Shown: positions 1,863 to 16,619, counted from the first letter of the stretch. The stretch is 16,619 nt of DNA from a virus (IMGVR_UViG_3300027710_001241:1-16619), one strand, 5' to 3'. Notes: generated by a model not told the origin, from the letters alone. Numbers and translations: made by a program.

Positions 1863-2834
1863 TTAATATTTTGTGTACCACCGATATGCGCTATCAATGA
1901 TTGTTCCAATATCACTGTGTTCTGGTTCCCAATCTAAATCCCTTTTAGCTTTTGATGAATCTGCAATCAATATTGCAGGATCACCTGGACGCTTAATTCC
2001 ATAATTCAAAAATTTAAATCCATATTTTTCACCAACGTAGTCTGCAATTTGTTTATTGCTAATACCTTGTGCAGTTCCTAAATTGAATACATAAAATCCT
2101 GGATTGTATTCTAAATAATTGATAACTTTGATATGAGCCTGTGCTAGATCCAAAACATGGACATAATCTCTAACGCAGGTACCATCTGGAGTATTATAGT
2201 CATCTCCAAATACATTAAATGCTTTACCGTTAATACTGGCTTCCAAAGCTCGGGCAATAATATGGGTGCCGCCAGATTCTTCACCTAAGTCGTGTTCAAC
2301 GGGCCATGCACCTGCGGCATTAAAATATCTAAAACAGATACTATTGATATCGTAGGCGTTACTGTAATCTCTCAGCATTGTTTCGATCATTAACTTAGTA
2401 CGACCGTAGGGACTAATTGGATTAAGTGGATGACTTTCTGGAATAGGTAATTCTTTAGGTTCACCGTAAACACTGGCACTACTGCTAAACAGTATAGTAG
2501 GCTTCTTAGAAAAATTCTTGATATGATTTAACAATGTAATTGTTTTAGCAACATTGTTTTCATAGTAGTCCGCCGGATCGTACACACTAGGTTCTACCAA
2601 ACTTGTTCCAGCACAATGTACAATAATGTCTGGTTGTTCTAGTTCAATTAGATCTAGTGCAGGCGTGCTGGCATAATCTGCCCTTAAAAAACAATCTATA
2701 TCTTTAAGGGTATGATTATGCTGAACTCGATCTATAATGACAACACGATTATTATGATCAGCATATCTAAATGCCCGTGCGATATGACTACCAATGTAGC
2801 CACATCCTCCGGTGACAATTATAGTTTTGCTCAT
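1863..2834 (-). CDS. galE: UDP-glucose 4-epimerase (extended SDR)
   Basis: GGCGYIG Rossmann motif, FSSSASVYG, YGRTK (YxxxK), RYFNAAGA, DGTCVRDYVHVLDLA, GDPAILIAD. ATGA overlap with the upstream gene. Confidence 0.9.
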   Translation of the reverse strand: MSKTIIVTGGCGYIGSHIARAFRYADHNNRVVIIDRVQHNHTLKDIDCFLRADYASTPALDLIELEQPDIIVHCAGTSLVEPSVYDPADYYENNVAKTITLLNHIKNFSKKPTILFSSSASVYGEPKELPIPESHPLNPISPYGRTKLMIETMLRDYSNAYDINSICFRYFNAAGAWPVEHDLGEESGGTHIIARALEASINGKAFNVFGDDYNTPDGTCVRDYVHVLDLAQAHIKVINYLEYNPGFYVFNLGTAQGISNKQIADYVGEKYGFKFLNYGIKRPGDPAILIADSSKAKRDLDWEPEHSDIGTIIDSAYRWYTKY

Positions 2835-3637
2835 GACAGTCGAAGTAACAAATTCTTCTTTAATGCTGCCTCGAGGACCTGCATAGTAACACCTAGATCT
2901 TTTGACAATGATACCAATGCTTCGGTGTCCTTAGGCAAACAATGTCCACCGAATCCAAAAGATCCATCCGCACCGGGTACCTTCATATGGCTGCGTCCGA
3001 TTCGCTGATCTAAACTAACCAATTCGGCAATAACATCGTAATCTAATCCGGATGCTACTGCTATTCCATGAAGCTCATTCATGAATACAACTTTAGTGGC
3101 TAGAAAACTGTTTATAGCATATTTGGCCAATGCGGCTTCGCCGATATCACAATGCACAATAGTTTTTAAATTTTGTTGACTGAGCTTAACAAAACGTTCA
3201 GCTTCATTCATATAGGCTTTAACACTGCCTCCTATGATAGCAAATGACCCGTTGAGATAATCTCTAACAGCATCCGAAGCTGTAAGGAATTCAGGAACAT
3301 GAACTAGATTTGGATACTGCTCATTTAACCTTTTGTATATATTCGGAGTAGCTGTACACTTACTAATGATAACTCCGGTATATTTAATTTTATGTAACTT
3401 GTTTAATACATCTTCGAGAATAGAGGTATCACAATTTCCAGAGTCGCCACGTGGAGTAGGCACACAGACAAATACTGCTTCTGCTCCTGCAAGATCATTG
3501 TAAGTAGAGTTGTGTCCTTTATTAGGATCTATAATTACAATTTCCATGCAGAATCTATCGGAAATTGAATTAAGTATAGCATCCCCTACATATCCTAGTC
3601 CGATGATACCTATTTTAACTTCAGGAAAGGAGTTCAC
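2831..3637 (-). CDS. UDP-glucose/GDP-mannose 6-dehydrogenase family protein lacking the C-terminal domain
   Basis: GIIGLGYVG, CVPTP, PEFL, AKYAINSFLATKVVFMNE and GFGGHCLPKD (catalytic Cys motif). GTG start; only 268 aa. Confidence 0.88.
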   Translation of the reverse strand: MNSFPEVKIGIIGLGYVGDAILNSISDRFCMEIVIIDPNKGHNSTYNDLAGAEAVFVCVPTPRGDSGNCDTSILEDVLNKLHKIKYTGVIISKCTATPNIYKRLNEQYPNLVHVPEFLTASDAVRDYLNGSFAIIGGSVKAYMNEAERFVKLSQQNLKTIVHCDIGEAALAKYAINSFLATKVVFMNELHGIAVASGLDYDVIAELVSLDQRIGRSHMKVPGADGSFGFGGHCLPKDTEALVSLSKDLGVTMQVLEAALKKNLLLRLS

Positions 3638-4214: not shown

Positions 4215-4437
4215 CTGTGAGTCCCATAAAAATTAGTTCACGTTCTGTAATGTTGGCAACGGGCACTAGCCATTCATTCTTAATAGCTTCCATGATCACT
4301 AATTTGTGTGATCTGGGACAGTCTTGGCTGATTTCAAATCCTGCTCTAGGGGCTACAGTAAGTTTATCCTTGATGAGAAATCGAGGATCATCTTGTGTAA
4401 GTGTACGGATTTGACTTTGATGGACGGTGTAGTTCAT
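4204..4437 (-). CDS. Small hypothetical protein, predicted leaderless
   Basis: 77-aa ORF whose ATG lies 6 nt after a -10 box. Its stop overlaps the next gene's start. Confidence 0.78.
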   Translation of the reverse strand: MNYTVHQSQIRTLTQDDPRFLIKDKLTVAPRAGFEISQDCPRSHKLVIMEAIKNEWLVPVANITERELIFMGLTDES

Positions 4438-4443
4438 TCTACT

Positions 4444-4472
4444 AGTATAGCAGAATGTTCGGTAGTTGTCAA
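4444..4472 (-). promoter_or_regulatory. Strong sigma70 promoter with extended -10 for the 4437-1863 operon
   Basis: Minus strand TTGACA (4472-4467), 17 nt ending in TGC, TATACT (4449-4444). Confidence 0.88.
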
Positions 4473-4477
4473 CTACC
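4461..4477. repeat. Perfect inverted repeat GGTAGTTG-T-CAACTACC overlapping the -35 box
   Basis: 8-bp arms at 4461-4468 and 4470-4477, read directly. Confidence 0.9.
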
Positions 4478-5207
4478 AGTTAATCCAATCTTTGTTTCTA
4501 TATGGTTTGCCAGCTTCTGCCGCAGACAAATAACGGACTACCTTCTTTTTAACACGTTGTAAGATTGGATGATTGTGATCGTGTTCGAAGGCTTTTAAGT
4601 ACATACGCCAACTGTTATGACGTCTTTTCTTGCCTTTTTGGTTTTCGTTGAGATAGTTAACAACTTGACGTTTATTTTTACCAAACTTGTCCATAAGTTC
4701 GCAGGCAATGTTAAATCCATACGCATCTATTTCATCTGAGCATCCTAGGTACTCTTGTTCTTCCCTAATTTTACTTTTTTCAGCATTGCTGGCATAATCT
4801 GGAAGTTGCTTAAAGTTTCTTCTTCTAAATTGACGCATGTGAATAATTTCATGTAGCAGGGTGTCTGCTATAGTTGTACACATACTAGAAAATCTTTTGC
4901 TGGTTAGATTTATTATCTTTTCATTGGCCCGATATTGGAACAATATTTCAATGCATTTTTCGTAGTCTTCGTCGTAACCGCTGTAGTAACAGCCACCTAC
5001 AAATACAAAACCTGAATCTACCTTTGGACTAAAAGTTTTTCGAACTCTAACAGGTATGTACTTCTTTAAAAGACCGGTAACTTTTTTATGAAATTGGTCT
5101 ATAGTAAGCGGCTGTTTTACTATTTCAGGCGCCAAGGTATGCATCAGCGTAATTATGCTGTTTCGATTTAACACAGACCAGTCAAAGTTTTTGGTTGAAG
5201 TAGCCAT
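4473..5207 (-). CDS. HEXXH zincin-like (putative metallopeptidase-fold) protein
   Basis: LLHEIIHMRQ followed about 30 aa later by EIDAYG, a gluzincin-like spacing of the third ligand. Confidence 0.6.
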   Translation of the reverse strand: MATSTKNFDWSVLNRNSIITLMHTLAPEIVKQPLTIDQFHKKVTGLLKKYIPVRVRKTFSPKVDSGFVFVGGCYYSGYDEDYEKCIEILFQYRANEKIINLTSKRFSSMCTTIADTLLHEIIHMRQFRRRNFKQLPDYASNAEKSKIREEQEYLGCSDEIDAYGFNIACELMDKFGKNKRQVVNYLNENQKGKKRRHNSWRMYLKAFEHDHNHPILQRVKKKVVRYLSAAEAGKPYRNKDWINW

Positions 5208-5276
5208 TTTTCACCCAGAGTATACTATTAATTATCACTGTTTTGCTTCTATTATATACTACTTTTAAGCTATAAC

Positions 5277-5309
5277 ATATTTATGTGGGCTATTATTGGT
5301 CATAAATAT
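5277..5309. promoter_or_regulatory. Back-to-back CATAAATAT motifs (putative late promoters) at a divergent junction
   Basis: ATATTTATG at 5277-5285 and CATAAATAT at 5301-5309 form a 9-bp inverted repeat; each resembles the T4 late promoter TATAAATA. Confidence 0.55.
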
Positions 5310-5328
5310 CAAACACCAATGTTGTCCA

Positions 5329-5856
5329 ATGAAAATCCATTCTATACACGACCTCTCTAATAATTATGTAGTTGATATGCTTAGGGATAATCTGGTAACC
5401 GTGACTGAATCTAATTTAGTTAAAAACTATCATCCAGACTTTTCTAATGACCCTGCCAATTTATTCTACATTCTTAAAGACGGGCGCTTTAAAAATGGCG
5501 ACTATTTTGTTATGGAAGAAGATGGAAAGTATGTTGGCAGCGCAGGATGGAATCCATATGGTGATGTTGCACTAGTATTAACTAGAGCATTCATTCCTAT
5601 AACAGAACGCAGGAAATATAATATGGCACGTTACCTGCTACCTATAATATTTGAGAAATCAATTGATTTTAAAAAACTTTGGATTACTTGTAACGATTAT
5701 AATTTTACAATATATCGGGCACTAACTAGATTGCACAACGGTAAATCTATAGGATTATGCTCGTCGTGGGATGATGTATATAAAAATTTTATACCTATTG
5801 GAAAAAAGACAGTAAACTATACAGAACAATATGTAGCAGAATATAAAAGATATTAA
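5329..5856 (+). CDS. GNAT-fold N-acyltransferase-like protein
   Basis: YFVMEEDGKYVGSAGW beta-hairpin followed by LVLTRAFIPITERRK (motif-A-like region). The ATG at 5329 is preferred over the track's TTG at 5296. Confidence 0.6.
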   Translation: MKIHSIHDLSNNYVVDMLRDNLVTVTESNLVKNYHPDFSNDPANLFYILKDGRFKNGDYFVMEEDGKYVGSAGWNPYGDVALVLTRAFIPITERRKYNMARYLLPIIFEKSIDFKKLWITCNDYNFTIYRALTRLHNGKSIGLCSSWDDVYKNFIPIGKKTVNYTEQYVAEYKRY

Positions 5857-6422
5857 TTAATATATTCTGCTAACATGATATTTGCTTCTTGCCATGTTAA
5901 TCGTTTCTTAGTAGTTAAGTTTATAAGTGGCATCGAGTAACAATCTCGTTTGCTATTTCCATTGAGAAGGGTGTGAATGATCATGCCATTGACTAAACAG
6001 GCAGGCCCGTTTGCACTAGCTTCGAATATAAAATTGCAATCTTCTTCATTGTAAATTTTTATTCTTTCGCCAACCTTGTTATATATAAAGCTCGGTGATC
6101 TGTCTGGTTTTAGAGAATACCAACACATTTTACTATTAGTTGAATTATAAATCAAATTAATTTTAACACAATCAGTGATTCGGTTTGATAATTCACTAAC
6201 ATAACTAACATCTTTGTGTAAGGTATATTTGTGGTAGGGTAACGCACTAAAAAATCTACAATTGTCTACACCAATGTTTAGAGACGCTAACCATTCTTTA
6301 AACTCAATGTTTATATCATCAATTGGTAATATTTTCTCAAATGATTTATTAATCTTAATATCCTGATAGCACTGGACAAATATATTGGGAATGTTTAATT
6401 CCTGATAATATATATTACTCAT
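5853..6422 (-). CDS. Fe(II)/2OG-type oxygenase (double-stranded beta-helix), group A
   Basis: HKD (HxD) ... KINL ... LVNGMIIHTL (distal His) ... NSKRDCYS (Arg for 2OG). Confidence 0.65.
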   Translation of the reverse strand: MSNIYYQELNIPNIFVQCYQDIKINKSFEKILPIDDINIEFKEWLASLNIGVDNCRFFSALPYHKYTLHKDVSYVSELSNRITDCVKINLIYNSTNSKMCWYSLKPDRSPSFIYNKVGERIKIYNEEDCNFIFEASANGPACLVNGMIIHTLLNGNSKRDCYSMPLINLTTKKRLTWQEANIMLAEYIN

Positions 6423-6424
6423 TT

Positions 6425-7045
6425 TTAATTACCGGTTGTTAACAATATATGCATCCTTGTTTGAGTGCCCATATGAAATACTGAGTGTTTAATACCTTTA
6501 GGGTTGAGATACCAGACTCGGCCATCTGCTGGCATATGACACAGTGTCATATCTCTGTGGGAGTTCTCAAACACCCACAAACAGTTTTCATCTGTTACTA
6601 CTGGAATATGATATCGGTGCGCTGTATGCATGTCCCTGTGTAATCTATAAGCATGATTTGCTCTTAACCATATTAATTGACATCTACCTTGAAAAGGTTT
6701 TTCAAATTTAGAATTGTGCATTTTAAACACATTGTCAATTGCTTCTTTTAGATACAGACCGTCTAACTCAGTTAAAAATTCTGAAAAGTCTTCTTCTTTA
6801 ATATTTGCTTTTTCAACTGTATTGTGACTACCTCGATGTTTTTGCCAACGATCGATCCCTTCGATTCCTGGTAAATGATTTAAGTTAAAAGTTGTTGCTG
6901 TGCGAGACAACAACTCATTATTAAATATGTCATGAGAAATTCCAAGTCTACTAAACAAAATTTCAACCGAATCGATTAATTTTTTTACATCAAAATTAAG
7001 ATCAGTAGGAAAACAATACGGGTCTACTCTATCAGTTACTATCAT
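6425..7045 (-). CDS. AspH-like (Asp/Asn beta-hydroxylase family) Fe(II)/2OG oxygenase, group B
   Basis: LHRD ... RYHIPV ... HMPADGRVWYLN ... KHSV ... TRMHIL. Confidence 0.75.
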   Translation of the reverse strand: MIVTDRVDPYCFPTDLNFDVKKLIDSVEILFSRLGISHDIFNNELLSRTATTFNLNHLPGIEGIDRWQKHRGSHNTVEKANIKEEDFSEFLTELDGLYLKEAIDNVFKMHNSKFEKPFQGRCQLIWLRANHAYRLHRDMHTAHRYHIPVVTDENCLWVFENSHRDMTLCHMPADGRVWYLNPKGIKHSVFHMGTQTRMHILLTTGN

Positions 7046-7586
7046 TTAATAAACTCCATGGATCTTCTATAAATCTAAAACTTAGCGATATTCGTTGCTC
7101 TCCGATTGGAGAGTATACCCCGTGCGGAATCTTTGTATTAAAAATTGTAGGCTGTAATAAATCAAATTGATCAATCAATTGAAATTTTGCATCCTTGGAA
7201 AACTTATATTTTGGAATTCCATTAGGTTGTATCGCTTCATACATTTGACCGTTGACTAAGTTGTATAATCCAGTATATGACCCTTTTGGTATTTTGATTC
7301 CAAAGTTTAATGCCAACGTTTGTTTTTGATGATCAACATGAGTAAGAGCAAACCCATTACCTACTATTACAATGATTGCACATGCTCTAGGAATTATTTT
7401 TTTTTCTTTAAACCATAGATTAATACTAGGACATTTTGCTAGTAAGTCTGGTAATTTAAGATGGAAATAAGGATTTGATGCCCCTGTATTTTTGGGTTCG
7501 TTGTCATATGCATAGACTGTTAATTCTTTAATGATCCTATCGTAATTCTCAATGTGAATAGTTTTATATAAAAAGTTTTCAATCAT
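7032..7586 (-). CDS. Fe(II)/2OG-type oxygenase, group A
   Basis: THVD ... ALNFGI ... PTIFNTKIPHGV ... RISLSFRF. ATGA overlap with the radical SAM stop. Confidence 0.7.
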   Translation of the reverse strand: MIENFLYKTIHIENYDRIIKELTVYAYDNEPKNTGASNPYFHLKLPDLLAKCPSINLWFKEKKIIPRACAIIVIVGNGFALTHVDHQKQTLALNFGIKIPKGSYTGLYNLVNGQMYEAIQPNGIPKYKFSKDAKFQLIDQFDLLQPTIFNTKIPHGVYSPIGEQRISLSFRFIEDPWSLLNDSN

Positions 7587-9091
7587 ATAGTGCAGTCCTG
7601 TGTTGCATTTATATAATCTAATAATTGCTTTTTATATTGCCCTGCCATCCTTAGTCGTTTTTTTAATATTGATTTCCACGGCATGTCTTTTATTTTCCAA
7701 TTCATTAACTCTTCCTGCGAGTATCCATGACTTCTTAATGCCATGATCATCCAAGAGCCGGGCATGTTTTCTTTATACATTGCAATATCATTAAACTCTT
7801 TAGAAATAGAAAATGCAGTAGAGTGAGTCATTGTATTGCTTACCCAATCTTCTCCGTCAACATTTAATGTATATCCGTATCTGTGATGATCTTTGTCAAA
7901 TGCAGATTGATAGTGAGTATCAGTGTTTATGCTCAACGGATACCAATTATCACATAGATCTCTGCCTTCATTCCTAAACCATTCAAATGATTCTCTTAGG
8001 TCTTTTTCAGTTTCTTTTGGTAGTCCTACAATCATAGAACACGTTATCGAAATCTCACTGTTCCACTGTTTGTAATATAAATCTAACAAAAATGTCTTCA
8101 GTTTATTTCTGTCCATGCCTTTTCCTATGGCTTTTGCTGCATAAGGATGGAACGACTCTATACCAAACACCACTGAAGATAATCCCATTTCTTTTAATAA
8201 TACAATCTGTTCAGTGTGTTTATATAACAGGTCTGCTCTTAGGAAACATACAAAATTTATTTTAAATGGCAATTGTGTAAAAACAGAATGTAGTGCTGCC
8301 ACTTTTTCAGTTGAATCATTGAATGTATCGTCTGTGAAAAAATAATTAGTGGTTCCGAATTTTGTGTAATTTTCAATCAACTCTTTCTTAATAAGATCAT
8401 AGTCTCTTATGTAATCAAGTTTCTTTTTACCGTTCAGTGGGTACGCACAAAATTTACATTTAAAAATACATCCCCTAGTGATTTCAATTGGTAGTGTTTC
8501 GTTATTTAAAATTATATCCTGTTCAATAAATCTGTGTTGTAGATTTTCAATGTCGAACTTTTCTAGGTCGCCGTTAATAATGTCCTGTTTGCCTATTTTT
8601 TTATGTAAGGCCTTTTTCTTTCCGCTTTGAAGTTCGTTCAAATAGTTAACCACTGATTCTTCAGAGTAGCCATGAAACACAGCATCAAAGAACGGATTCC
8701 CCTCCATCTGCCAACTATTAGCCCCACCTGCAATTATTTTAACAGATGGGACTGACGATTTAATAAAGTCTATTGCAGATTCTATTTGAGAATCAACTCC
8801 TGCGTGTCCTCTAAAAATTGATCCGGCAGTTGGCACAAGAATTGGATTATTGTAATCTTCGTTGACAAACGAATAAAATGTAGTTGAAATTCCAACGGCT
8901 AATAATTTATCAGATACTAATTTTTCACAGATACTGATTAACTCATTCGAATTAAAAAAATCAGTAAAGTCAATAACCTGAACATCGTATCCATTTATTC
9001 GGCAGTGATGCGCCACTTGGTATGCACCTATTGATCTCTGCCAAACAGATCCTCTGGTATTTGTAAAAATTAAAAAATGTGGTAGTTGCAT
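7583..9091 (-). CDS. Radical SAM enzyme with an N-terminal cobalamin-binding-like domain (class B type)
   Basis: EITRGCIFKCKFC (CxxxCxxC), FTDDTFN, FGIESF, MIVGLPKET, and N-terminal SIGAYQVA...GYDVQVIDF and KIIAGGA segments. The ATG at 9091 is preferred over the track's TTG at 9151. Confidence 0.88.
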   Translation of the reverse strand: MQLPHFLIFTNTRGSVWQRSIGAYQVAHHCRINGYDVQVIDFTDFFNSNELISICEKLVSDKLLAVGISTTFYSFVNEDYNNPILVPTAGSIFRGHAGVDSQIESAIDFIKSSVPSVKIIAGGANSWQMEGNPFFDAVFHGYSEESVVNYLNELQSGKKKALHKKIGKQDIINGDLEKFDIENLQHRFIEQDIILNNETLPIEITRGCIFKCKFCAYPLNGKKKLDYIRDYDLIKKELIENYTKFGTTNYFFTDDTFNDSTEKVAALHSVFTQLPFKINFVCFLRADLLYKHTEQIVLLKEMGLSSVVFGIESFHPYAAKAIGKGMDRNKLKTFLLDLYYKQWNSEISITCSMIVGLPKETEKDLRESFEWFRNEGRDLCDNWYPLSINTDTHYQSAFDKDHHRYGYTLNVDGEDWVSNTMTHSTAFSISKEFNDIAMYKENMPGSWMIMALRSHGYSQEELMNWKIKDMPWKSILKKRLRMAGQYKKQLLDYINATQDCTI

Positions 9092-9099
9092 GGCCTTGA

Positions 9100-9107
9100 T
9101 ATTTATA
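9100..9107 (-). promoter_or_regulatory. TATAAATA putative late promoter for the radical SAM block
   Basis: Exact T4 late consensus, 8 nt upstream of the ATG at 9091. Confidence 0.65.
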
Positions 9108-9150
9108 ATGATATACTGCGCTGAGATTTTGTTTAGGCTGGGCAACACCA

Positions 9151-9158
9151 AATAAATA
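9151..9158 (+). promoter_or_regulatory. AATAAATA putative late promoter
   Basis: 5 nt upstream of the ATG at 9164; no SD in between. Confidence 0.6.
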
Positions 9159-9163
9159 AATGT

Positions 9164-9931
9164 ATGGAAACTATTATAGGTCTAGGAGACAAAAAATCTC
9201 CATTTTTATATCTTGATGAATATGTTAAGCAGATTGATTTAAATTTGTTAAACAACGAAATATCTAAAGGGATTGCGTTATCCAATTGGAATAAACGATT
9301 TGTTTCAAGTGGTGTTCATGATGAATGGGCAGATAAAGAAATTACTCCCTATATACGAAACTTAGAAAAACATCTAACTCCTGAACAGGTTGAGATATTT
9401 ACATCGTTTAAAACAACTGACGAAAAACTTAAATTTATTAGTTGTATACTTCCTGTACCGCATCCGTTTTGGATAGTCTATTTACGAAATAATAAACGGA
9501 TAGATTCTAGTGGCATTAACAACAAAGCAGTTTCTGCAGATTGTCATTGGACAGAAAATGCTGCACACTTTCCTACACTAGTTGACTTTGTTAAAAGCAT
9601 GCCGTTTGAAGGAATTGGAAGAGTCATGATTTTTATGACAGAGGCTAATAATCAAACAGTTCCTCACTTTGATGCAGGAACGCAAGAACAACGTTCTAAA
9701 AAACCCAATGATGATTTTATTTGGTTTACTACTTCACAACACGCTAAAAAAATATATGTTATGAATGGTACCACTAAGGAAAAGTTTTACACCGACGAAA
9801 CTAAAAAGTATATATGGTTTAATGAAATGGATTATCACGGAACTGATGCTATTCCTTATTTTACATTCTCGATAAGAATAGACGGAAAGTTTCTACCAGA
9901 TATAAAAAGCCGCTTACTAGCTAGTCTTTGA
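9164..9931 (+). CDS. Cupin/2OG-Fe(II)-type oxygenase with a long N-terminal region
   Basis: GRVMIF ... PHFD (HxD) ... WFNEMDYHG (distal His) ... FSIRIDG. Confidence 0.6.
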   Translation: METIIGLGDKKSPFLYLDEYVKQIDLNLLNNEISKGIALSNWNKRFVSSGVHDEWADKEITPYIRNLEKHLTPEQVEIFTSFKTTDEKLKFISCILPVPHPFWIVYLRNNKRIDSSGINNKAVSADCHWTENAAHFPTLVDFVKSMPFEGIGRVMIFMTEANNQTVPHFDAGTQEQRSKKPNDDFIWFTTSQHAKKIYVMNGTTKEKFYTDETKKYIWFNEMDYHGTDAIPYFTFSIRIDGKFLPDIKSRLLASL

Positions 9932-10544
9932 GTAAGAGATCGGGAAATAAAAAATCTTCAAACTTGAATGCAAATATTGCAACTATTCTAGTTTTATCAA
10001 AGTTTAATACTTGATGTTTCCATCCTGTGTTGATAAAATACATCTTGCCGGGTTCCATTAACAGTTCTTCTATGCAATCTTTGGTTTGAAAGTTAAATTT
10101 GTTATCCCCAACATCTATGCAGATTTGTGCCCTGCATACCACGCTGGTATCTGCATCAATGTGCCACGGTATGATATGATTAGGACTTGAAACTGAAATT
10201 CTAAGTCTATAAACATTTTTAAAGTATCTAAGTAGAAAAGTTTTAATTCTTTCAGTACCATCTACCCAGTTGGTGTAGTCAAATTCTGTTTTTTGATCAG
10301 AGCTATGCGATTGCAATAATATTTGTTTGTATTCTGTTTGTGACACATTGAATACTGATTTTAAGTCAATATTTTCTGCAATTTGATAGTTATCACTTCC
10401 TATGCTAGTAGGCGGAATTGTACTTGATAGATTTTTTAAATCAAATATTATTTCTTCTGGTACAGAATCGACAACAGAAAATGCCTTAAGCATTCGTCTC
10501 GACGGCCCCAATCCGTTGACTCTTTGTTTTTTAGATTCTATCAT
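9921..10544 (-). CDS. AspH-like Fe(II)/2OG oxygenase, group B
   Basis: RLRIS ... PWHID ... MEPGKMYFINTGWKHQV ... TRI. Confidence 0.72.
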   Translation of the reverse strand: MIESKKQRVNGLGPSRRMLKAFSVVDSVPEEIIFDLKNLSSTIPPTSIGSDNYQIAENIDLKSVFNVSQTEYKQILLQSHSSDQKTEFDYTNWVDGTERIKTFLLRYFKNVYRLRISVSSPNHIIPWHIDADTSVVCRAQICIDVGDNKFNFQTKDCIEELLMEPGKMYFINTGWKHQVLNFDKTRIVAIFAFKFEDFLFPDLLLKD

Positions 10545-10566
10545 AAATTAAATTTTGTTGTTTGAA

Positions 10567-10579
10567 TATTTAATAAATA
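10567..10579. promoter_or_regulatory. Back-to-back TAAATA pair (TATTTA-A-TAAATA), putative divergent late promoters
   Basis: Minus TAAATA at 10572-10567 and plus TAAATA at 10574-10579, between the divergent genes starting at 10544 and 10601. The plus gene has SD AAAGGA. Confidence 0.55.
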
Positions 10580-10600
10580 ACTAAAAGGATTAAAAAATAT

Positions 10601-11011
10601 ATGTACACTATTATTTTATACAGAAGACCGGATGTATCAACTTTATTTTTTCAGCCTGATTCAGATGTCTGGCAAAATCCTAACCTTATTAACTTTTATC
10701 AGCATATTAAAGATGAAGGAATTTTAATGTCTGATACTATAGAACTATCCGAAGACCAGTTGATTATGAAAAAAACTATGGTTTGGAAAAATTTTGAAAG
10801 TTGGTCTCAATATGTGGATGACTTTATATTAGCTTTTCCAACTTACGCCAGCGATCGTGACACTTTTCACACGGCACACAACTCTCAATACCTAGTTAAA
10901 ACTTTTTTTAATGATGAAGTTGAACTAAAGTCCGTGGGTACTATTAACGCATCTGTAATAATTCATAATAACAATGGTGTCATATCTTCGTCATATGTGA
11001 TTACTGAGTAA
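10601..11011 (+). CDS. Hypothetical protein
   Basis: 136-aa ORF with SD; TAATG coupling to the downstream desaturase. Confidence 0.8.
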   Translation: MYTIILYRRPDVSTLFFQPDSDVWQNPNLINFYQHIKDEGILMSDTIELSEDQLIMKKTMVWKNFESWSQYVDDFILAFPTYASDRDTFHTAHNSQYLVKTFFNDEVELKSVGTINASVIIHNNNGVISSSYVITE

Positions 11012-11748
11012 TGACCCCTTATAAACAAACGTTGTTTGTAGTATGGATAAATCAGATATTATTCTGCTTATCGCTTATACTAATGTGGGATAATTTGTTA
11101 ATTCCAATAGGTATTGTAGCACTATATGTATTTGGCTGCTTTAGCGAAATTTCCATTCATAGATACTATACACATAAAAGTTATGAAACTACTCCATTAA
11201 AAGAAAAGTTTTTAAGAGTATTTGCACTATTAGCAGGCCAAGGCGCTACTATATCTTGGGTCACTGTTCATAGAACTCATCATGCGTTTGAAGATACTAT
11301 TAAAGATCCGCACAGTCCTTTATTTCATCCATGGTGGAAGATACTGTTAGGTTTGTTCCCTACTCAATATAGTAACAATCTTGTTGTGGACTTGATGAGA
11401 AAAAGAAGCTGGAACTATTTTGTCTTTGAAAACAAATACTACTGGTTAATATGGACAGCAATTTGGATTGTATCGTTTCTAATTAGTAAATGGTTATTTT
11501 ATTTTATTGTTGCCGGCGCCGCCCTATGGTACGCGGCAACTAGTGCAGTAAACATCTTATCGCACGGATTTATATTAGGCACTACTCGATTTAAAGAAAC
11601 AGTTGCAACTAATAGCAGTATCCTTAATTTCTTTACAGGAATAGGAAATCATAACAATCATCACAAGTTTCCTAAAAGTTATACCTATTCCGTTGATAAT
11701 GAAATAGATATCAACGGTTGGGTCATTAAAACTTTTTTTAAAATCTAA
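11011..11748 (+). CDS. Membrane fatty-acid desaturase-like protein (delta-9/DesC-type His boxes)
   Basis: Three His boxes HRYYTH, HRTHH and HNNHH, DPHSP after box 2, and hydrophobic segments. Confidence 0.88.
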   Translation: MTPYKQTLFVVWINQILFCLSLILMWDNLLIPIGIVALYVFGCFSEISIHRYYTHKSYETTPLKEKFLRVFALLAGQGATISWVTVHRTHHAFEDTIKDPHSPLFHPWWKILLGLFPTQYSNNLVVDLMRKRSWNYFVFENKYYWLIWTAIWIVSFLISKWLFYFIVAGAALWYAATSAVNILSHGFILGTTRFKETVATNSSILNFFTGIGNHNNHHKFPKSYTYSVDNEIDINGWVIKTFFKI

Positions 11749-12343
11749 ATTCTGATTTAAGGCTGTTATGCCTTACTACTATTGTTCTCTGTTGTTTTCC
11801 TGCAAGACTTCCTAATAGCTTATTAAACATGTGAAATTTTGAAAAGGTATTAGGTGGTATAATTTCCACGTCATTAACTATATATCTATCTGTGATAGTT
11901 AATAACTGGTCATGCAGGTTTCGTCTTTTATTAAATTTTTCACCAGTGTCTACAATAGCAATATAACCGTCATATAATTTGTTACGTTCGGCTTCTGTCA
12001 TACATGCCTGATACATCATTAAAGATAGCGCTCTGTGTCTTATATAATCTAGTCCAGGTCTATTTAATGTAAAATTAGTTCCAACACTCCAAAAAGGTAA
12101 TCCACTCCAGAAAGAAATTCGCATAGTGCCCTCGACTTGTCCGTCAATTTCTCCCACTACTAATAATCCCGGGTTGTTATTATCTATGGTTGTTTTTATA
12201 TAATGGGCTGACTGATTTTCTATACTGGTACCGAACATAGATTTTTGACTAGATATAATAGTAGATACTACTTCCCGATCTGTATCAGCGTAGGGTCTTA
12301 CAGTTATCCTTGAGAATATTTCATGATTACTAACAAATTTCAT
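11738..12343 (-). CDS. Hypothetical protein, weakly GNAT-like
   Basis: TVRPYADTD start and LLVVGEIDGQVEGTMRI hairpin resemble GNAT strands; no clear acetyl-CoA loop. Confidence 0.4.
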   Translation of the reverse strand: MKFVSNHEIFSRITVRPYADTDREVVSTIISSQKSMFGTSIENQSAHYIKTTIDNNNPGLLVVGEIDGQVEGTMRISFWSGLPFWSVGTNFTLNRPGLDYIRHRALSLMMYQACMTEAERNKLYDGYIAIVDTGEKFNKRRNLHDQLLTITDRYIVNDVEIIPPNTFSKFHMFNKLLGSLAGKQQRTIVVRHNSLKSEFRF

Positions 12344-13098
12344 TTTTTAATCAACTCGATAAATTTTGCAGACAAATCAATTTCCCACCACTTTTCACCG
12401 AATCTATATTTTCCAGGCCACCTATGATGATTATTATGCCACCCGCCTCCTAGTGTAATAATTGAATTCCACAATACATTTCTACTGTTATCGGATAAGT
12501 CGTAGTTGCGATATCCTACAGCAGGATGATGAAATATTACATTACCTAGATTTTCTATCATACCAAATAAAAAGAATCCACCCAATGTAAAAAAGAATAG
12601 GCCAAAATAAGGGTCAATCAAATACATTACTAATCCAGACAACCAGTAAAATTTATAGTAGTGTCTGTGTATGACTTTAATTAACTTATCGGTATACATG
12701 TTCCTATTGGCCAATGCAGGAATTTGTTCTATTGGTTTAAATTGCCATCCTATGAATGATGTAAATATTCCGTTCGTAGGAGAGTGCAGATCTGCACTGG
12801 TATCGGATACTCTGTGATGATGTTTGTGTAGGCCTACCCAAAATATAGCACTGCCCTGGCCCGATAAGGATCCAAATATGATCATTAATACTTCCCAGAA
12901 TCTAGATGTTTTAAATGATTGGTGTGCTAAGAATCTATGAAATCCTATAGAACTTCCAAAGATTCCGATAACATAGAATCCTAGGAGAGTATATAATATA
13001 TAGGTCCATGTAAAATCAGTGATTAAAACATAGATAGCCAATAAGGATAGTACATATCCGGGCAACATGATTCGTTTAAAATGATCACTTAAATGCAT
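12340..13098 (-). CDS. Membrane fatty-acid desaturase-like protein (delta-9/DesC-type)
   Basis: GFHRFLAHQSF, HKHHH, DLHSP, GGGWHNNHH and WWEIDLS. The ATG at 13098 is preferred over the track's TTG at 13125. Confidence 0.92.
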   Translation of the reverse strand: MHLSDHFKRIMLPGYVLSLLAIYVLITDFTWTYILYTLLGFYVIGIFGSSIGFHRFLAHQSFKTSRFWEVLMIIFGSLSGQGSAIFWVGLHKHHHRVSDTSADLHSPTNGIFTSFIGWQFKPIEQIPALANRNMYTDKLIKVIHRHYYKFYWLSGLVMYLIDPYFGLFFFTLGGFFLFGMIENLGNVIFHHPAVGYRNYDLSDNSRNVLWNSIITLGGGWHNNHHRWPGKYRFGEKWWEIDLSAKFIELIKK

Positions 13099-13669
13099 TA
13101 TTAAACTTCTCTTGTAATAAATCAAATGAGGGATTAATTTTAAATCTTAGACTTAGCATCCATCGAAATGACTGCACTCCCCTATTATCAACTCTATGCC
13201 ACGTATCTGTATTAACTAGTGCAGGCTCTGTTACTAAAGTAGAAAATATAGGAACTGTTTCATTGGACTTTCCGTTTTGTATTTGCTCGTTGGTAACTCT
13301 AATGGTTGTATAATTATTTTCAACAGAGTAGACAGAAAAATCTGAATTGCTAAACCAATCCATAGATCCTGTTTCGCAATTTAAAATAGGAACGTTAAAT
13401 GCACATAATCTATCAACTCCGTCCTTGTGAATTAAACCAACAGTATTAGGTTCTATTGCAAATATTTGTAAAACAATAATCTCTTCTGGAATGCCTTGTC
13501 TGATCCATTCGGGTATCTCATCTTTTATTAGACGATGAATAATAGTGTGAGTATCTCCCCTAAGTCTGCTACTCTCTAAACATTTTTCGTTGTCTACAAA
13601 TGTCAAACCAAATTCTTTAATCTTTTCAAAGAAAGGATTCCACTTATAGTGTGTTATTAAATTTTTCAT
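13085..13669 (-). CDS. Fe(II)/2OG-type oxygenase, group A
   Basis: IHKD ... AFNVPI ... PALVNTDTWHRV ... RWMLSLRF. Confidence 0.72.
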   Translation of the reverse strand: MKNLITHYKWNPFFEKIKEFGLTFVDNEKCLESSRLRGDTHTIIHRLIKDEIPEWIRQGIPEEIIVLQIFAIEPNTVGLIHKDGVDRLCAFNVPILNCETGSMDWFSNSDFSVYSVENNYTTIRVTNEQIQNGKSNETVPIFSTLVTEPALVNTDTWHRVDNRGVQSFRWMLSLRFKINPSFDLLQEKFNNAFK

Positions 13670-14254
13670 TTAGATATTATAAGTGTGGTCGTCTGAATCA
13701 ATGTCAATAATAATATGTATACGCTCAACATTAGATCTATTTTCTGCAGAATGTTTTTTTCTGTTAGCTAATTGTGAAAGGTACCCTTCGGGCATGTGCA
13801 TAGGATGATCTTTATCTTCCCCAAAGAATAACACATCAGGGTCGGTAACAATAGGCACATGAAATCGATAGTGCTCTAAAAAGTATTTTCCAGGATCGAT
13901 ATGTTCTCCTATAATGCCGGACGGCATTAACTTAACTATCATTATCCTTCCTAATTTTGTTCCGTTTACAGAAGCAAATACCCAGTTAACTAATTTATCT
14001 ACTTCTGGGTAAAGTTGTCTTGCAGGAGTATCTTTACACTCAACAATAGCAGACAGTGCTTCGATTGTATGCGGTGTATCTTTAGTTACATTATGAACTC
14101 TTAGATGATTGGTTATACTTGTTTTAAATACTGCGGCTTCAGATCGACGATCGGGTATTGGCAGATTATTCCAATCTATTTTTAATACCTCGGCCTTGGC
14201 ATTTATAAATAGATCGTCAGGAACTTTAGATAATACTCTAATAACTTGGTTCAT
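13670..14254 (-). CDS. AspH-like Fe(II)/2OG oxygenase, group B
   Basis: GRIMIVKLMPSG ... EHID ... RFHVPI ... HMPEG ... KHSAEN ... ERIHIIID. Confidence 0.8.
   Translation of the reverse strand: MNQVIRVLSKVPDDLFINAKAEVLKIDWNNLPIPDRRSEAAVFKTSITNHLRVHNVTKDTPHTIEALSAIVECKDTPARQLYPEVDKLVNWVFASVNGTKLGRIMIVKLMPSGIIGEHIDPGKYFLEHYRFHVPIVTDPDVLFFGEDKDHPMHMPEGYLSQLANRKKHSAENRSNVERIHIIIDIDSDDHTYNI
14204..14211 (+). promoter_or_regulatory. TATAAATA inside the opposite-strand gene, candidate promoter for the gene at 14275
   Basis: Exact octamer 63 nt upstream of the ATG at 14275, whose short intergenic region has no plus-strand motif. Confidence 0.35.
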
Positions 14255-14259
14255 GAAGA

Positions 14260-14267
14260 TATTTATA
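14260..14267 (-). promoter_or_regulatory. TATAAATA putative late promoter
   Basis: Exact octamer 5 nt upstream of the ATG at 14254; no SD. Confidence 0.65.
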
Positions 14268-14274
14268 GATTGCT

Positions 14275-14820
14275 ATGCTAGACTTTAAATTTTATAAGAC
14301 GACTACGTTGTCATGTTTCCCTTCAATTAGTAAGGCCCTACTAGAAAAACATAAAGATAAATTTAATACAAATGAAAGAAGCGCAGTGTTATTGCCTTGG
14401 ACACAAGAAAACTTTTTAGATTTGTATGATGAAATAAACTCGTTAGTTAAACCAAAAGGTTTACATGTTACTATTTCTAGATTTTTTATTACTCCGCCGA
14501 ACGGACGTCTCGGAGTTCATGTGGATAGTCACGAACTAAATCCTAACGCATACGCTTTAAATATCCCTATATTGGTAGATTCAAAAGACCATGTTATGAA
14601 TTGGTTCGACTACGATGGCGAAATTTTTTCAAAAGTAACTCCGACATATAATAAAGCGATTGCTCCGTTAACGCCGGAAAAGCTTCAGTTAGTTGAAAGT
14701 TATTTGTTAATAGAACCTACATACGTTCAGGTTGGAGTATTTCATGAAGTATTGAATACAAGTAGTTTACCGAGAATTGTATTAAGTATTAGATTTTCAA
14801 ACTCGTTTAAAGTGGGTTAA
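14275..14820 (+). CDS. Fe(II)/2OG-type oxygenase, group A
   Basis: VHVD ... ALNIPI ... PTYVQVGVFHEV ... PRIVLSIRF. Confidence 0.72.
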   Translation: MLDFKFYKTTTLSCFPSISKALLEKHKDKFNTNERSAVLLPWTQENFLDLYDEINSLVKPKGLHVTISRFFITPPNGRLGVHVDSHELNPNAYALNIPILVDSKDHVMNWFDYDGEIFSKVTPTYNKAIAPLTPEKLQLVESYLLIEPTYVQVGVFHEVLNTSSLPRIVLSIRFSNSFKVG

Positions 14821-15382
14821 GGTCTGATTTCCACGGTGTATTAATAATGCAATTATCTTTTTTTCTAAATCTTTCAATAAATTTTTTATATTCAGTTACA
14901 GCCTGATGTTTAGAAATATTTTGATATGGTCTAAAATGTCTTACTATAAATCCTGCATCCCATACACCTTGTCCTAGATCTCTTTTATCATCCTCTTTCC
15001 ATACTTGTCCGTTATCTAATATAGGATCTTCATCAAAAATTCTTTGAACAGTTTTTAGATCTCTCCAAATTTCAATATAGTCGATGCTACGGCTTACTGG
15101 ATTAAATGATTTTACTCTCCACACTAGGTCTCCATTTTGTGCAGATTGATTAAATGCTTCATTATGATTCTTCCACTTTTCCTGCAAGTGTGTGGTTTGT
15201 TTCCTAACATTTAAACCTGCATTATTTCCTTCTACAAAATAATTCTTTACAAAAGATTCATTGTCAAATCTATGCTGTATCCAAAGATATCTTACCACCC
15301 ATCCAATCTCGCCGTCTGGATCGATAAGAGAATTCATTGGTGATGTTGTGTTATCTATAAAACAAATTGCGTTAATGTGCAT
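14807..15382 (-). CDS. Hypothetical protein (191 aa)
   Basis: The ATG at 15382 (MHINAICF) is preferred over the track's TTG at 15430, which would overlap the divergent gene. Confidence 0.78.
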   Translation of the reverse strand: MHINAICFIDNTTSPMNSLIDPDGEIGWVVRYLWIQHRFDNESFVKNYFVEGNNAGLNVRKQTTHLQEKWKNHNEAFNQSAQNGDLVWRVKSFNPVSRSIDYIEIWRDLKTVQRIFDEDPILDNGQVWKEDDKRDLGQGVWDAGFIVRHFRPYQNISKHQAVTEYKKFIERFRKKDNCIINTPWKSDLNPL

Positions 15383-15383
15383 A

Positions 15384-15396
15384 TATAAATATTTAC
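15384..15396. promoter_or_regulatory. Overlapping bidirectional TAAATA promoter (palindrome TAAATATTTA)
   Basis: Plus TATAAATA at 15384-15391 and minus GTAAATA at 15396-15390, within a 14-nt divergent gap. Confidence 0.65.
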
Positions 15397-16257
15397 ATGA
15401 TTTTAAAAAACGTTCACAAAAATTGGGCAACTGAAATACAATTTGATGATCCTTTAGATTTTTTTAAACAACCTATGGGGTTTTGGAGAGATTTAATTTA
15501 CCAACGGAAGCTTCTAATATTTAAAAAAATGAAATTCACTAAAGAAGATTATGCAAAATTTTCTTTACACTTTGGAAGACCGTGGACAAATGAAGAGTAT
15601 AGCTATAGTGAAGAAAAAAAAGAAGATGTAATGACAGATGTAGGACTTATGACACTAAGTCCATTTAGTAATAAGACTAGTAAACGATTGCATACTCGTC
15701 CGATGACATATCATGCAGATATTCCTAATAAAGGAATAAATCCTTTTCCATTTAGAAGTTTATGGATTACAAAAAATCCTAATCCGGAAATATCAGGAAT
15801 AACAGGATTTTTAAATATATCTCAGGAATCGTTTTCTTACTTAACTGATGAACAACGGGACCTACTTGATAAAGTTAAAATAATACAGCAAAGTTGGTAT
15901 AAGCCCGGAACTGATTTTAGAGAATATGACTTTGTAAAAATACATCCAATCACAGGAGAAAAATCACTACGATTAAATTATTTTTGTAAAGGTCAGGATC
16001 AAACGGCTTGGATTAAGTATGTGATAATTAACGAGCAACAGCAGCCAGATTGTCAATTAATCGAAGACTTTACTAAACATTTATTGCAATTTAAAGATTT
16101 ACAACACTTCCATACTTGGGATACTTATGATATATTAATATATGATAATTATCAGTTCATTCACAACAGAAGTTCTTTAATCCTTGAAGCAGGTGAAGAA
16201 CGTCATTTCTATAGAATGAATATTGATCATGTTAATGATTTAGAATTTAAAATTTAA
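15397..16257 (+). CDS. TauD/TfdA family dioxygenase
   Basis: YHAD (HxD), HPITGEKSLRLN, and WDTYDILIYDNYQFIHNR matching the TauD C-terminal WxxxDxxxxDNxxxxHxR pattern. Confidence 0.88.
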   Translation: MILKNVHKNWATEIQFDDPLDFFKQPMGFWRDLIYQRKLLIFKKMKFTKEDYAKFSLHFGRPWTNEEYSYSEEKKEDVMTDVGLMTLSPFSNKTSKRLHTRPMTYHADIPNKGINPFPFRSLWITKNPNPEISGITGFLNISQESFSYLTDEQRDLLDKVKIIQQSWYKPGTDFREYDFVKIHPITGEKSLRLNYFCKGQDQTAWIKYVIINEQQQPDCQLIEDFTKHLLQFKDLQHFHTWDTYDILIYDNYQFIHNRSSLILEAGEERHFYRMNIDHVNDLEFKI

Positions 16258-16619
16258 AAATGGTTTAAAAATTACACAAGGGTCCCATTCCCACCACTTG
16301 CCACTTATACTGTTACCAAAATTAAAATTTTTAGGATCGTAATGGTGATTGTTATGCCATCCTTGTCCCCAGGCAAGGTATCCTAAAATAAGATTATTAT
16401 AACTATTATCTTTAGTTGTATAATTCCTGTATCCTATGATACCCTTAAGGTGGCCAAATACATTAACTAAGTTGTCTTGAATTGTTCCTAAGAAAGATAC
16501 TAGACAAAAAGCGGTTAGTGCAAGTTTCCAATCAAATAATGCAACAATTAACGGGACACCCCAAAGTACCTTCAATTGATGTTTATGAAACCATAAATGG
16601 TTAGGTTTCCTAAGTAAGT
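16240..16619 (-). CDS. C-terminal part of a third desaturase-like protein (gene starts beyond the window)
   Basis: VNVFGH, GYRNY, WGQGWHNNHH and WWEWDP. The frame stays open upstream of the track's TTG (LLRKPNHLWFHKHQ) to the window edge. Confidence 0.88.
   Translation of the reverse strand, partial: LLRKPNHLWFHKHQLKVLWGVPLIVALFDWKLALTAFCLVSFLGTIQDNLVNVFGHLKGIIGYRNYTTKDNSYNNLILGYLAWGQGWHNNHHYDPKNFNFGNSISGKWWEWDPCVIFKPFLNFKF

Follow-up and report, generated by a model that had tools for sequence, protein, structure and literature searches.

A conserved phage operon with a carrier-protein-like gene and its variable island of predicted oxygenases, desaturases and a radical SAM enzyme

Introduction

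Why would a virus gather nine predicted oxygenases, three desaturases and a radical S-adenosylmethionine (SAM) enzyme side by side? This arrangement was recognized at positions 5329 to 16619 of IMGVR_UViG_3300027710_001241:1-16619, a stretch of 16,619 nucleotides from a virus (hereafter, the window). The window opens an 80,619-base IMG/VR virus record (contig G000), of which it covers the initial 16.6 kb. A preliminary description of the window proposed that the 17 genes of this region form one dedicated pathway, expressed late in infection, which modifies a common substrate. We compared the region with related loci and found a conserved core operon with an interchangeable tail of tailoring genes, in place of one fixed 17-gene pathway.

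Conserved core operon

The core operon consists of five genes in the order GNAT2, acyl carrier protein (ACP)-like gene, PP-loop gene, GNAT1 and membrane desaturase gene. The preliminary description had found no scaffold-building enzyme in view, and this was an artefact of the window edge. Such genes were missed because most of them are located just beyond the window end; the ACP and the PP-loop enzyme are encoded at 17627–18777, in the same operon. The desaturase gene (266 residues; its 3′ part, 16240–16619, is in the window and the gene continues to 17040), GNAT1 (17040–17630) and the PP-loop gene (305 residues; 17627–18544) are all on the minus strand with overlapping stops and starts. Upstream of them, on the same strand, is the ACP-like gene (77 residues; 18544–18777, corresponding to L004:2544–2777), approximately 1.9 kb past the window end.

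The ACP-like gene had previously not been called and lies in an apparent 300-bp intergenic gap. Its product contains the carrier motif LDSLDIVEL, in which DSLD is invariant in five orthologues. It matched PP-binding (PF00550) with 19.4 bits in the window genome (cut-off, 20.8), and the orthologue in the related locus L088 reached 28.9 bits. The gene is preceded by TATAAATA at 18817–18824 and by an AAGGA (Shine-Dalgarno-like) leader. In a search for a ribosomal precursor peptide, the carrier protein was the sole conserved small gene found. The PP-loop protein is AsnB-like: it contains the motif SGGTDSE, and structurally the nearest protein is the synthetase domain of asparagine synthase. Its sequence clusters are almost exclusively viral. 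Queuosine or deazaguanine DNA modification, considered from FolE and a weak QueC-like match, was rejected because the PP-loop protein is nearest to asparagine synthase and because FolE belongs to the conserved backbone, being present in relatives without the island.

In L088, all five core genes are oriented in one direction with GNAT2 first. GNAT2 orthologues (44–49% identity) are located directly upstream of the ACP or PP-loop gene in L088, L095–L097 and L099–L102. In the window phage, GNAT2 (5329–5856, plus strand) and the ACP-to-desaturase block (18777–16240) face each other across the variable array. Compared with L088, one inversion, from the ACP to the end of this array, split the operon.

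For the core desaturase, over 120 cluster representatives were identified at 66–91% identity. From these we took seven desaturase-anchored contigs, L095–L097 and L099–L102, chosen for length alone. The order GNAT2-(ACP)-PP-loop-GNAT1-desaturase was found in all seven, in L088, which was anchored on the island flank, and in L033. The ACP gene is inside the operon in three of the seven and adjacent in one. Core genes overlap or abut across contigs, and both order and coupling persist though the core proteins are only 41–69% identical between contigs. Directly after the core desaturase, six of the seven contigs carry cupins (Fe(II)/2-oxoglutarate (2OG) oxygenases of the cupin superfamily), TauD or a class-B radical SAM gene. 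In L096 this tail reads cupin, cupin, radical SAM, cupin, all co-directional, and TauD genes come after the core desaturase in L095 and L100. The segment right after the core in L102 (L102:9794–16656) encodes an ACP, six tandem desaturases and a ketoacyl synthase. This block may represent a cassette for acyl chains of the polyunsaturated or polyyne type.

As a cellular control, we inspected the 80 best desaturase matches across 185,579 prokaryote species genomes. These cellular desaturases are 28–37% identical, versus 66–91% among the copies on environmental contigs, and the environmental copies whose context was examined are on phage contigs. GNAT1, GNAT2, PP-loop, cupin and TauD genes were absent within 7 kb of all 80 nearest cellular desaturase loci. 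The core operon is restricted to phages.

Among 62 dereplicated loci anchored on the radical SAM gene, a desaturase was found in 14 of the 15 with GNAT1 versus 11 of the 47 without it (p = 2e-6, a figure that is indicative only, as it ignores kinship and related loci are not independent). The neighbor slots of GNAT1 were occupied by a desaturase or PP-loop gene in 15 of 34 cases, versus a background of 7%. Co-occurrence is non-random for part of the gene set, as shown by the order of the core operon and by the GNAT1–desaturase pairing; the tailoring genes differ between relatives.

Variable island and gene turnover

The core operon and the tailoring genes form an island at 5208–18850 of the contig. 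Its GC content is 32.7%, versus 39–40% on either side, and a dCMP deaminase gene (contig 18850) is located to its right. Using the conserved left-flank gene (4473–5207) as a search anchor, we obtained six relatives, L087–L092, whose flanks are 51–99% identical. In L089–L092 the flank genes are collinear and co-directional, with no oxygenase or desaturase between them; in L089, the orthologue of the boundary gene and the dCMP deaminase gene are immediate neighbors, the island being absent. L087 and L088 have flank proteins that are 84–99% identical, and the island is present but different: one holds eight cupins, GNAT1 and a desaturase, and the other a bare core operon with two cupins. The closest island relative, L010, keeps approximately twelve families at 55–72% identity in a shuffled order. 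The number of copies per 20 kb in related loci ranged from 0 to 14 for cupins, 0 to 8 for desaturases and 1 to 4 for radical SAM genes. Variable content between conserved collinear flanks is the hallmark of the hyperplastic regions of T4-like phages. The island is a mobile low-GC accessory island at a hot spot.

Turnover was also observed within a population. A 16.7-kb contig from a 2025 aquatic metagenome of another study spans 4400–16619 at approximately 99% identity, and this excludes an assembly artefact as the origin of the gene order. Contigs of runs X5 and X6 of the other study are devoid of exactly 5853–6424, which corresponds to one oxygenase gene. The deletion joint has a 7-bp TTAATTA microhomology that holds the stop codons of the flanking convergent genes, and both stop codons are kept. 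Single tailoring genes thus come and go within a population, as the approximately 99% identical contig is without one oxygenase gene. A fixed set of 17 genes, as first proposed, is not compatible with this deletion or with the other sets, or none, found between flanks of 84–99% identity. In the same 16.7-kb contig, the left flank gene (4400–5207) is approximately 94.6% identical, versus approximately 99% over 6425–16619, and this difference suggests recombination that moves the island between backbones.

Source phage

The source is a phage, and a bacterial chromosome was ruled out. The viral origin assumed at the outset is upheld by the IMG/VR record and by CheckV, which estimated 22% completeness for the 80,619-base contig and thereby a genome of approximately 360 kb; the largest relatives fetched reach 365 kb. 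The relatives encode T4-type RNA ligase and PAAR/baseplate-type genes. Genes on the remainder of the contig are mostly co-directional and include DnaK, a Ro60-like gene and further host-like genes of the kind borne by phages. The contig is a fragment of the genome of an uncultured jumbo T4-like aquatic phage. A giant eukaryotic virus was considered because genes alternate between strands, DnaK is present and the genome is estimated at approximately 360 kb. This origin was dropped, as other large genes of the contig strongly match PHROG families (proteins of bacterial and archaeal viruses) and the relatives carry the T4-type genes mentioned above.

Against 50,697 GenBank phage records, no match was obtained by megablast with the island or by tblastn with the radical SAM and PP-loop proteins; the lineage is uncultured. 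PHROGs searched with the first 10 island proteins gave a single match, of one desaturase to an unnamed family. The stretch is present in public runs of at least three studies, among which no RNA run is listed.

Fe(II)/2OG oxygenases

Open reading frame calling gave 17 genes within 5329–16619. As described earlier, 15 of them belong to modifying-enzyme types, and the families were confirmed by Pfam, profiles and structure models. Pfam names eight of the 17: three Asp_Arg_Hydrox (two below the cut-off), one TauD, one Radical_SAM and three FA_desaturase. All nine Fe(II)/2OG oxygenases were recovered, eight of them AspH/Cpz10-like and one TauD, by Pfam and by iterated local profiles. The profiles were built from open reading frames called in 80 related loci (1,998 proteins), and they unite the eight former genes in one superfamily, which also takes in two more proteins downstream of the island. 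Further AspH-like oxygenases are encoded outside the island at 25259–25903 and 34592–35074, both on the minus strand.

The AspH-like subgroup (A5) includes the genes at 6425–7045 (minus strand, 206 residues, 70% identical to an L010 orthologue), 9921–10544 (minus, 207 residues, HID at 128) and 13670–14254 (minus, 194 residues, HID at 118, H168 and R178). The last passed the Asp_Arg_Hydrox (Pfam PF05118 clan) gathering threshold of 22.6 bits with 37.4 bits, and the first two scored below it at 17.9 and 17.1 bits. A second subgroup (A4) of small oxygenases has no Pfam match and includes the genes at 5853–6422 (minus, 189 residues, HKD at 69), 7032–7586 (minus, 184 residues, HVD at 83, H155 and R165; L010 orthologue, 66%), 13085–13669 (minus, 194 residues, HKD at 81; L010 orthologue, 55%) and 14275–14820 (plus, 181 residues, HVD at 82). 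A larger oxygenase at 9164–9931 (plus, 255 residues, HFD at 168; L010 orthologue, 61%) was assigned to the cupin superfamily by the iterated profiles. The five copies without a Pfam match were placed solely by these profiles and by hhalign, in which A4 and A5 aligned with a probability of 96%. The ninth copy, at 15397–16257 (plus, 286 residues, HAD at 106), matched TauD (PF02668) over residues 9–274 with 45.7 bits (cut-off, 27).

In the A4 alignment (30 sequences), H83, D85, H155 and R165 are invariant. In that of A5 (28 sequences), H118, D120 and H168 are invariant and R178 is nearly so. The arginine sits approximately 10 residues past the distal histidine in both subgroups, a position from which it is predicted to bind the C5-carboxylate of 2OG. 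The HxD motif is kept in all nine window copies, TauD included, and the HxD...H metal ligands are intact rather than degenerate.

The profile of the AspH-like family matched the β-hydroxylase Cpz10 (PDB 7v4f; E = 1e-33) and also the free-proline hydroxylases 4p7w and 1e5r, and a sequence search of PDB with the A4 profile gave no matches. Cpz10, a non-haem 2OG β-hydroxylase in caprazamycin biosynthesis (PMC9814697), is the nearest solved relative of the AspH-like subgroup and shares its length of approximately 180–200 residues and its HxD...H...R pattern. In contrast, the single window protein used as a phmmer query did not match Cpz10 at E = 0.01, and the island phage is without nucleoside-antibiotic genes.

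Desaturases, radical SAM enzyme and GNAT proteins

The other modifying enzymes of the window were likewise identified as previously reported. The desaturases at 11011–11748 (plus strand, 245 residues; HRYYTH, HRTHH and HNNHH; L010 orthologue, 68%) and 12340–13098 (minus, 252 residues; HRFLAH, HKHHH and HNNHH) and the core desaturase matched FA_desaturase with 52.9, 48.2 and 36.7 bits, respectively, all above the Pfam cut-off. The three His boxes are kept in these three and in a fourth paralogue outside the island (47730–48434, plus). Four hydrophobic segments were detected in each window desaturase, and three or four 19-mers across the four paralogues. The box pattern and the automatic JGI name "stearoyl-CoA desaturase" suggest delta-9-type enzymes. 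In tblastn against GenBank phages, the only matches of the desaturase at 12340–13098 were Pelagibacter phage Mosig and a metagenomic record named "Acinetobacter phage" (26–30% identity).

The radical SAM gene is located at 7583–9091 on the minus strand (502 residues from the ATG at 9091). Its product matched Pfam Radical_SAM with 62 bits, and C208, C212 and C215 of the CxxxCxxC motif are invariant in 21 sequences. The best NCBIfam matches were the PhpK-family and ladderane-lipid B12/radical SAM models, with all scores far under the cut-offs (best, 89.7 versus 600); the enzyme is therefore placed outside every named NCBIfam subfamily on these scores. Its profile matched AprD4 (best), TokK and CysS in PDB. 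The NCBIfam B12/radical SAM models and TokK/CysS align from approximately residue 86–105, and the Pfam B12-binding model gave no match to the protein. A class-B (B12-domain-type) architecture is likely from these alignments. AprD4 possesses the B12-binding domain but is not known to use cobalamin. The enzyme has 307 relatives in IMG/VR and none in GenBank phages.

GNAT2 (5329) and the GNAT1 paralogue (11738–12343, minus, 201 residues; its start overlaps the stop of the desaturase gene at 12340–13098) were modeled with AlphaFold at a predicted local distance difference test (pLDDT) of 83 and 85, respectively, and both models have the GNAT fold. GNAT2 had no Pfam match; its Foldseek matches in PDB were all GNAT (best E, 5e-6). 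The top matches of the GNAT1 paralogue were phosphinothricin/ArsN/YncA and RimI acetyltransferases (E = 4e-8), and the GNAT1 profile (A1) matched the GNAT structure 4lua (E = 2e-7). For both proteins the Foldseek probability was 1.0, the top 50 matches were all GNATs and the template modeling scores were 0.5–0.65. A phosphonate pathway, prompted by the weak PhpK match and the phosphinothricin-acetyltransferase-like fold, was rejected since the contig is without phosphoenolpyruvate mutase.

Promoter-like motifs

The late-type promoter motifs noted in the preliminary description were found again, as TAAATA or TATAAATA is located upstream of eight of the nine transcription-unit heads. TAAATA precedes the ATG by 5–22 nucleotides at these eight heads, versus approximately 0.1 expected, an estimate that takes 23 TAAATA sites over both strands of 16.6 kb. 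In the first 22 kb, each of the five full copies of TATAAATA is upstream of a unit head. The count of TATAAATA over the whole window shows no excess over chance, so it is the placement of the motif, not its number, that is non-random. In the window, the copies of TATAAATA are at 9100–9107 before the radical SAM gene, 14260–14267 before the oxygenase gene at 13670–14254, 14204–14211, which is 64 nucleotides upstream of the oxygenase gene at 14275–14820, and 15384–15391 before the TauD gene. TAAATA occurs, for example, 20 nucleotides before the ATG of GNAT2 and five nucleotides before that of the oxygenase gene at 9164–9931. By analogy with T4, expression is probably late. The divergent gene pairs at 9092–9163, 14255–14274 and 15383–15396 are 14–72 bp apart, with no room for a Shine-Dalgarno leader.

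Proposed function and alternatives

We consider it about an even chance that the core acyl-carrier operon and the variable tailoring array build a decorated fatty-acyl compound during infection. This proposal starts from the observed gene families, intact catalytic residues, operon order, phage restriction, hot-spot position and gene-by-gene turnover. We infer the fatty-acyl substrate, as the sole pointers to it are the desaturases, the carrier protein and the ketoacyl synthase of one relative; the order of steps, the acceptor and the timing would be as follows. An acyl group would be activated and held on the phage carrier protein, with loading by the PP-loop enzyme or GNAT2. The membrane desaturases would act on the tethered acyl group, as in the ACP-dependent JamABC and polyyne cassettes, and a GNAT would pass it to an amine acceptor. 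The oxygenases would hydroxylate the acyl product, the radical SAM enzyme might methylate it, and transcription would probably be late, via the T4 late-type motifs at the unit heads. In support, the catalytic residues are invariant in both cupin subgroups, in the radical SAM family and in all four desaturase paralogues. More broadly, and only tentatively, jumbo aquatic phages may encode a natural-product-like gene cluster family of their own, in which a thiotemplated core makes an unsaturated N-acyl compound and swapped oxygenase, desaturase and radical SAM cassettes diversify the product from strain to strain in the manner of an arms race.

Several points weigh against the fatty-acyl proposal. 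The GNAT folds resemble short-chain amino-acid and protein N-acetyltransferases, unlike known long-chain N-acyltransferases, and we know of no PP-loop enzyme that loads a carrier protein. The ACP is absent from the operon in four of nine other instances (L033, L095, L099 and L100); in L102 it is encoded just outside the operon on the opposite strand, and in the window genome it falls just under the Pfam cut-off. No phosphopantetheinyl transferase (PF01648), ANL ligase (PF00501) or thioesterase was found in the 80.6 kb. Even near-identical relatives carry different tailoring genes, and a natural population does without one of them; this turnover fits independent genes no less than a variable pathway. 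Among 44 cupin-bearing loci, 23 hold cupin arrays without a desaturase within approximately 10 kb. In five cases only 5–8 nucleotides separate TAAATA from the ATG, which is less than an ordinary late promoter and its leader would need. These motifs may serve leaderless transcripts or another role; leaderless transcripts are suggested because the divergent pairs are separated by gaps of 14–72 bp with TAAATA 5–8 nucleotides from each ATG. Finally, the substrates assigned to the enzymes are predictions.

The main rival, which we judge unlikely, is that the island gathers independent auxiliary genes of a hyperplastic region with no common substrate. The desaturases would then tune the fluidity of the host membrane, a role proposed for the cyanophage desaturases (vFADs), the oxygenases would each have a target of their own in DNA or RNA repair, protein hydroxylation or 2OG drawdown, and the radical SAM and GNAT genes would be unrelated morons. 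Such independence is in line with the different gene sets of L087 and L088 and the empty sites of L089–L092, the clean one-gene deletion, the wide range of copy numbers and the shuffled order even in L010. A promoter-like motif at nearly every unit of one to four genes points the same way, and partnerless multi-copy 2OG-Fe(II) oxygenases of 180–250 residues have long been known in cyanomyophages (PMC3037559). It is countered by the core operon, a phage-specific set of five genes whose order and coupling are kept at 41–69% protein identity. In six of seven independent contexts, moreover, the gene after the core desaturase is an oxygenase, TauD or radical SAM gene of the same orientation, and starts often overlap the preceding stops. 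Each window paralogue also has its own orthologue in L010 at 55–72% identity; the paralogues are therefore old and individually maintained, not decaying copies.

It is quite improbable, in our estimate, that the island tailors a glycan or a protein of the virion or cell surface, as a late decoration of tail fibers or the host envelope. The roles would then be amidation of a uronic or nonulosonic acid for the AsnB-like enzyme, N-acetylation of amino sugars or protein termini for the GNATs, and hydroxylation of protein residues for the AspH-type enzymes. UDP-glucose dehydrogenase-like and NAD-epimerase genes are indeed located 2–3 kb upstream, but these sugar genes belong to the conserved backbone and are present in the island-free L090–L092 as well. 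Glycosyltransferases are found beside the operon in L100 and L101, and in L096 and L099 the operon comes after PAAR, spike-like and cell-wall hydrolase genes of the same orientation. A comparable cluster in phage Mosig (see below) adjoins tail-fiber genes and includes a DegT-type aminotransferase and a carbamoyltransferase. RimI is among the nearest folds of GNAT1 and PseH among the GNAT2 matches, and the late-type motifs would suit such a decoration. Against this, the nearest solved AspH-like relatives, Cpz10 and the free-proline hydroxylases, use small molecules, and acyl chains are suggested by the PP-binding carrier protein and by the ketoacyl synthase of L102. The best-conserved member of the core is an integral-membrane His-box desaturase, a type of enzyme for which no sugar or protein substrates are known.

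Comparison with known systems

The fatty-acyl proposal has its closest parallel in JamA/JamB/JamC, which form a terminal alkyne (10.1101/291195), and in the cay/pgn polyyne cores (PMC9828172). In these cassettes, membrane desaturases act on acyl groups held by a dedicated ACP with the aid of an ATP-dependent ligase, and several desaturases can act on one tethered chain (10.1101/291195; PMC9828172). The core operon shares with them a small dedicated carrier, an ATP-using activator and one to several adjacent His-box desaturases, and the likeness extends in L102 to the ketoacyl synthase and six desaturases. Unlike them, it has an AsnB-like PP-loop enzyme in place of the ANL ligase (no PF00501 match in 80.6 kb) and two phage GNATs at the place of the thioesterase. 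It is phage-borne and followed by arrays of 2OG oxygenases, and none of its tested features implies alkyne chemistry. Because the defining ANL ligase is absent, the island is a functional analogue of these cassettes and not a member.

Individual parts have precedents in phages. The desC-like auxiliary genes of cyanophages (vFAD; Roitman et al. 2017, PMC5776448) were tested in yeast and concern C16 chains. As in the island, they encode DesC/SCD-type His-box desaturases of approximately 250–290 residues and are accessory genes of T4-like aquatic phages. The island phage differs in that 80 kb contain four paralogues, of which one is embedded in the core operon beside the genes for two GNATs, the PP-loop enzyme and the carrier protein. 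T4-like cyanomyophages have multi-copy 2OG-Fe(II) oxygenase genes and hyperplastic regions (Sullivan et al. 2010, PMC3037559). Their oxygenases are likewise sporadic, with several paralogues of 180–250 residues per genome in variable regions between conserved blocks. In contrast, the density is higher here (eight within 9 kb; relatives reach 14 per 20 kb), and the island oxygenases are related to Cpz10 and proline hydroxylases and form arrays that adjoin the conserved acyl-carrier operon.

The cultured Pelagibacter phage Mosig EXVC030M (MT647606; PMC7892664) has a cluster, Mosig_00072–00092, that was annotated without analysis. It has the same mix of families as the island, with two Asp_Arg_Hydrox, a fatty-acid desaturase, TauD, an N-acetyltransferase, methylases and radical SAMs in one block. 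It differs from the island in that no ACP or AsnB-like gene is annotated, the radical SAMs are MoaA-like and not class B, and the desaturase is only 26% identical to the window desaturase.

A literature search found no paper that treats a radical SAM enzyme, a fatty-acid desaturase and a 2OG oxygenase of a phage together as a single system. Single DesC-like desaturases of cyanophages (PMC5776448) and multi-copy 2OG-Fe(II) oxygenases of cyanomyophages (PMC3037559) have already been published; what is new here is a putative thiotemplated desaturation cassette joined to a hyperplastic region of phage auxiliary metabolic genes. The small 2OG-Fe(II) oxygenase paralogues of T4-like aquatic phages, which have been catalogued since at least 2010, are now tied to a phage-specific core operon. 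If the fatty-acyl proposal is true, abundant uncultured phages would alter a lipid-like molecule of the infected cell, or supply a new one, through a pathway that has no cellular counterpart and that varies gene by gene within populations. This would be relevant to how phages and hosts interact at the surface and to viral auxiliary metabolism in lake water and groundwater. On the broader reading of a gene cluster family of jumbo phages, the swarms of 2OG-Fe(II) oxygenases in T4-like phages would gain a defined substrate.

Orphan and flanking genes

Two genes of the region are orphans. That at 10601–11011 (plus strand, 136 residues) has no Pfam or PHROG match and no relative among 86 loci. That at 14807–15382 (minus, 191 residues) has no Pfam match and a sole relative in L010 (60% identity); an Atlas look-up of this protein gave weak leads only (0.91).

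Upstream of the island, the UDP-glucose/GDP-mannose dehydrogenase-like gene (2831–3637) is short (238–268 residues). Its matches are limited to a portion of the N-terminal domain plus the central domain; the C-terminal domain is absent. This short form is conserved in relatives (238–292 residues). The backbone gene at the left edge of the island (4473–5207, minus, 244 residues) has orthologues of 51–93% identity in L087–L092 and contains an HExxH-like motif, HEIIH, with no family match. The island, or the empty site, is always located beside this boundary gene or one gene off.

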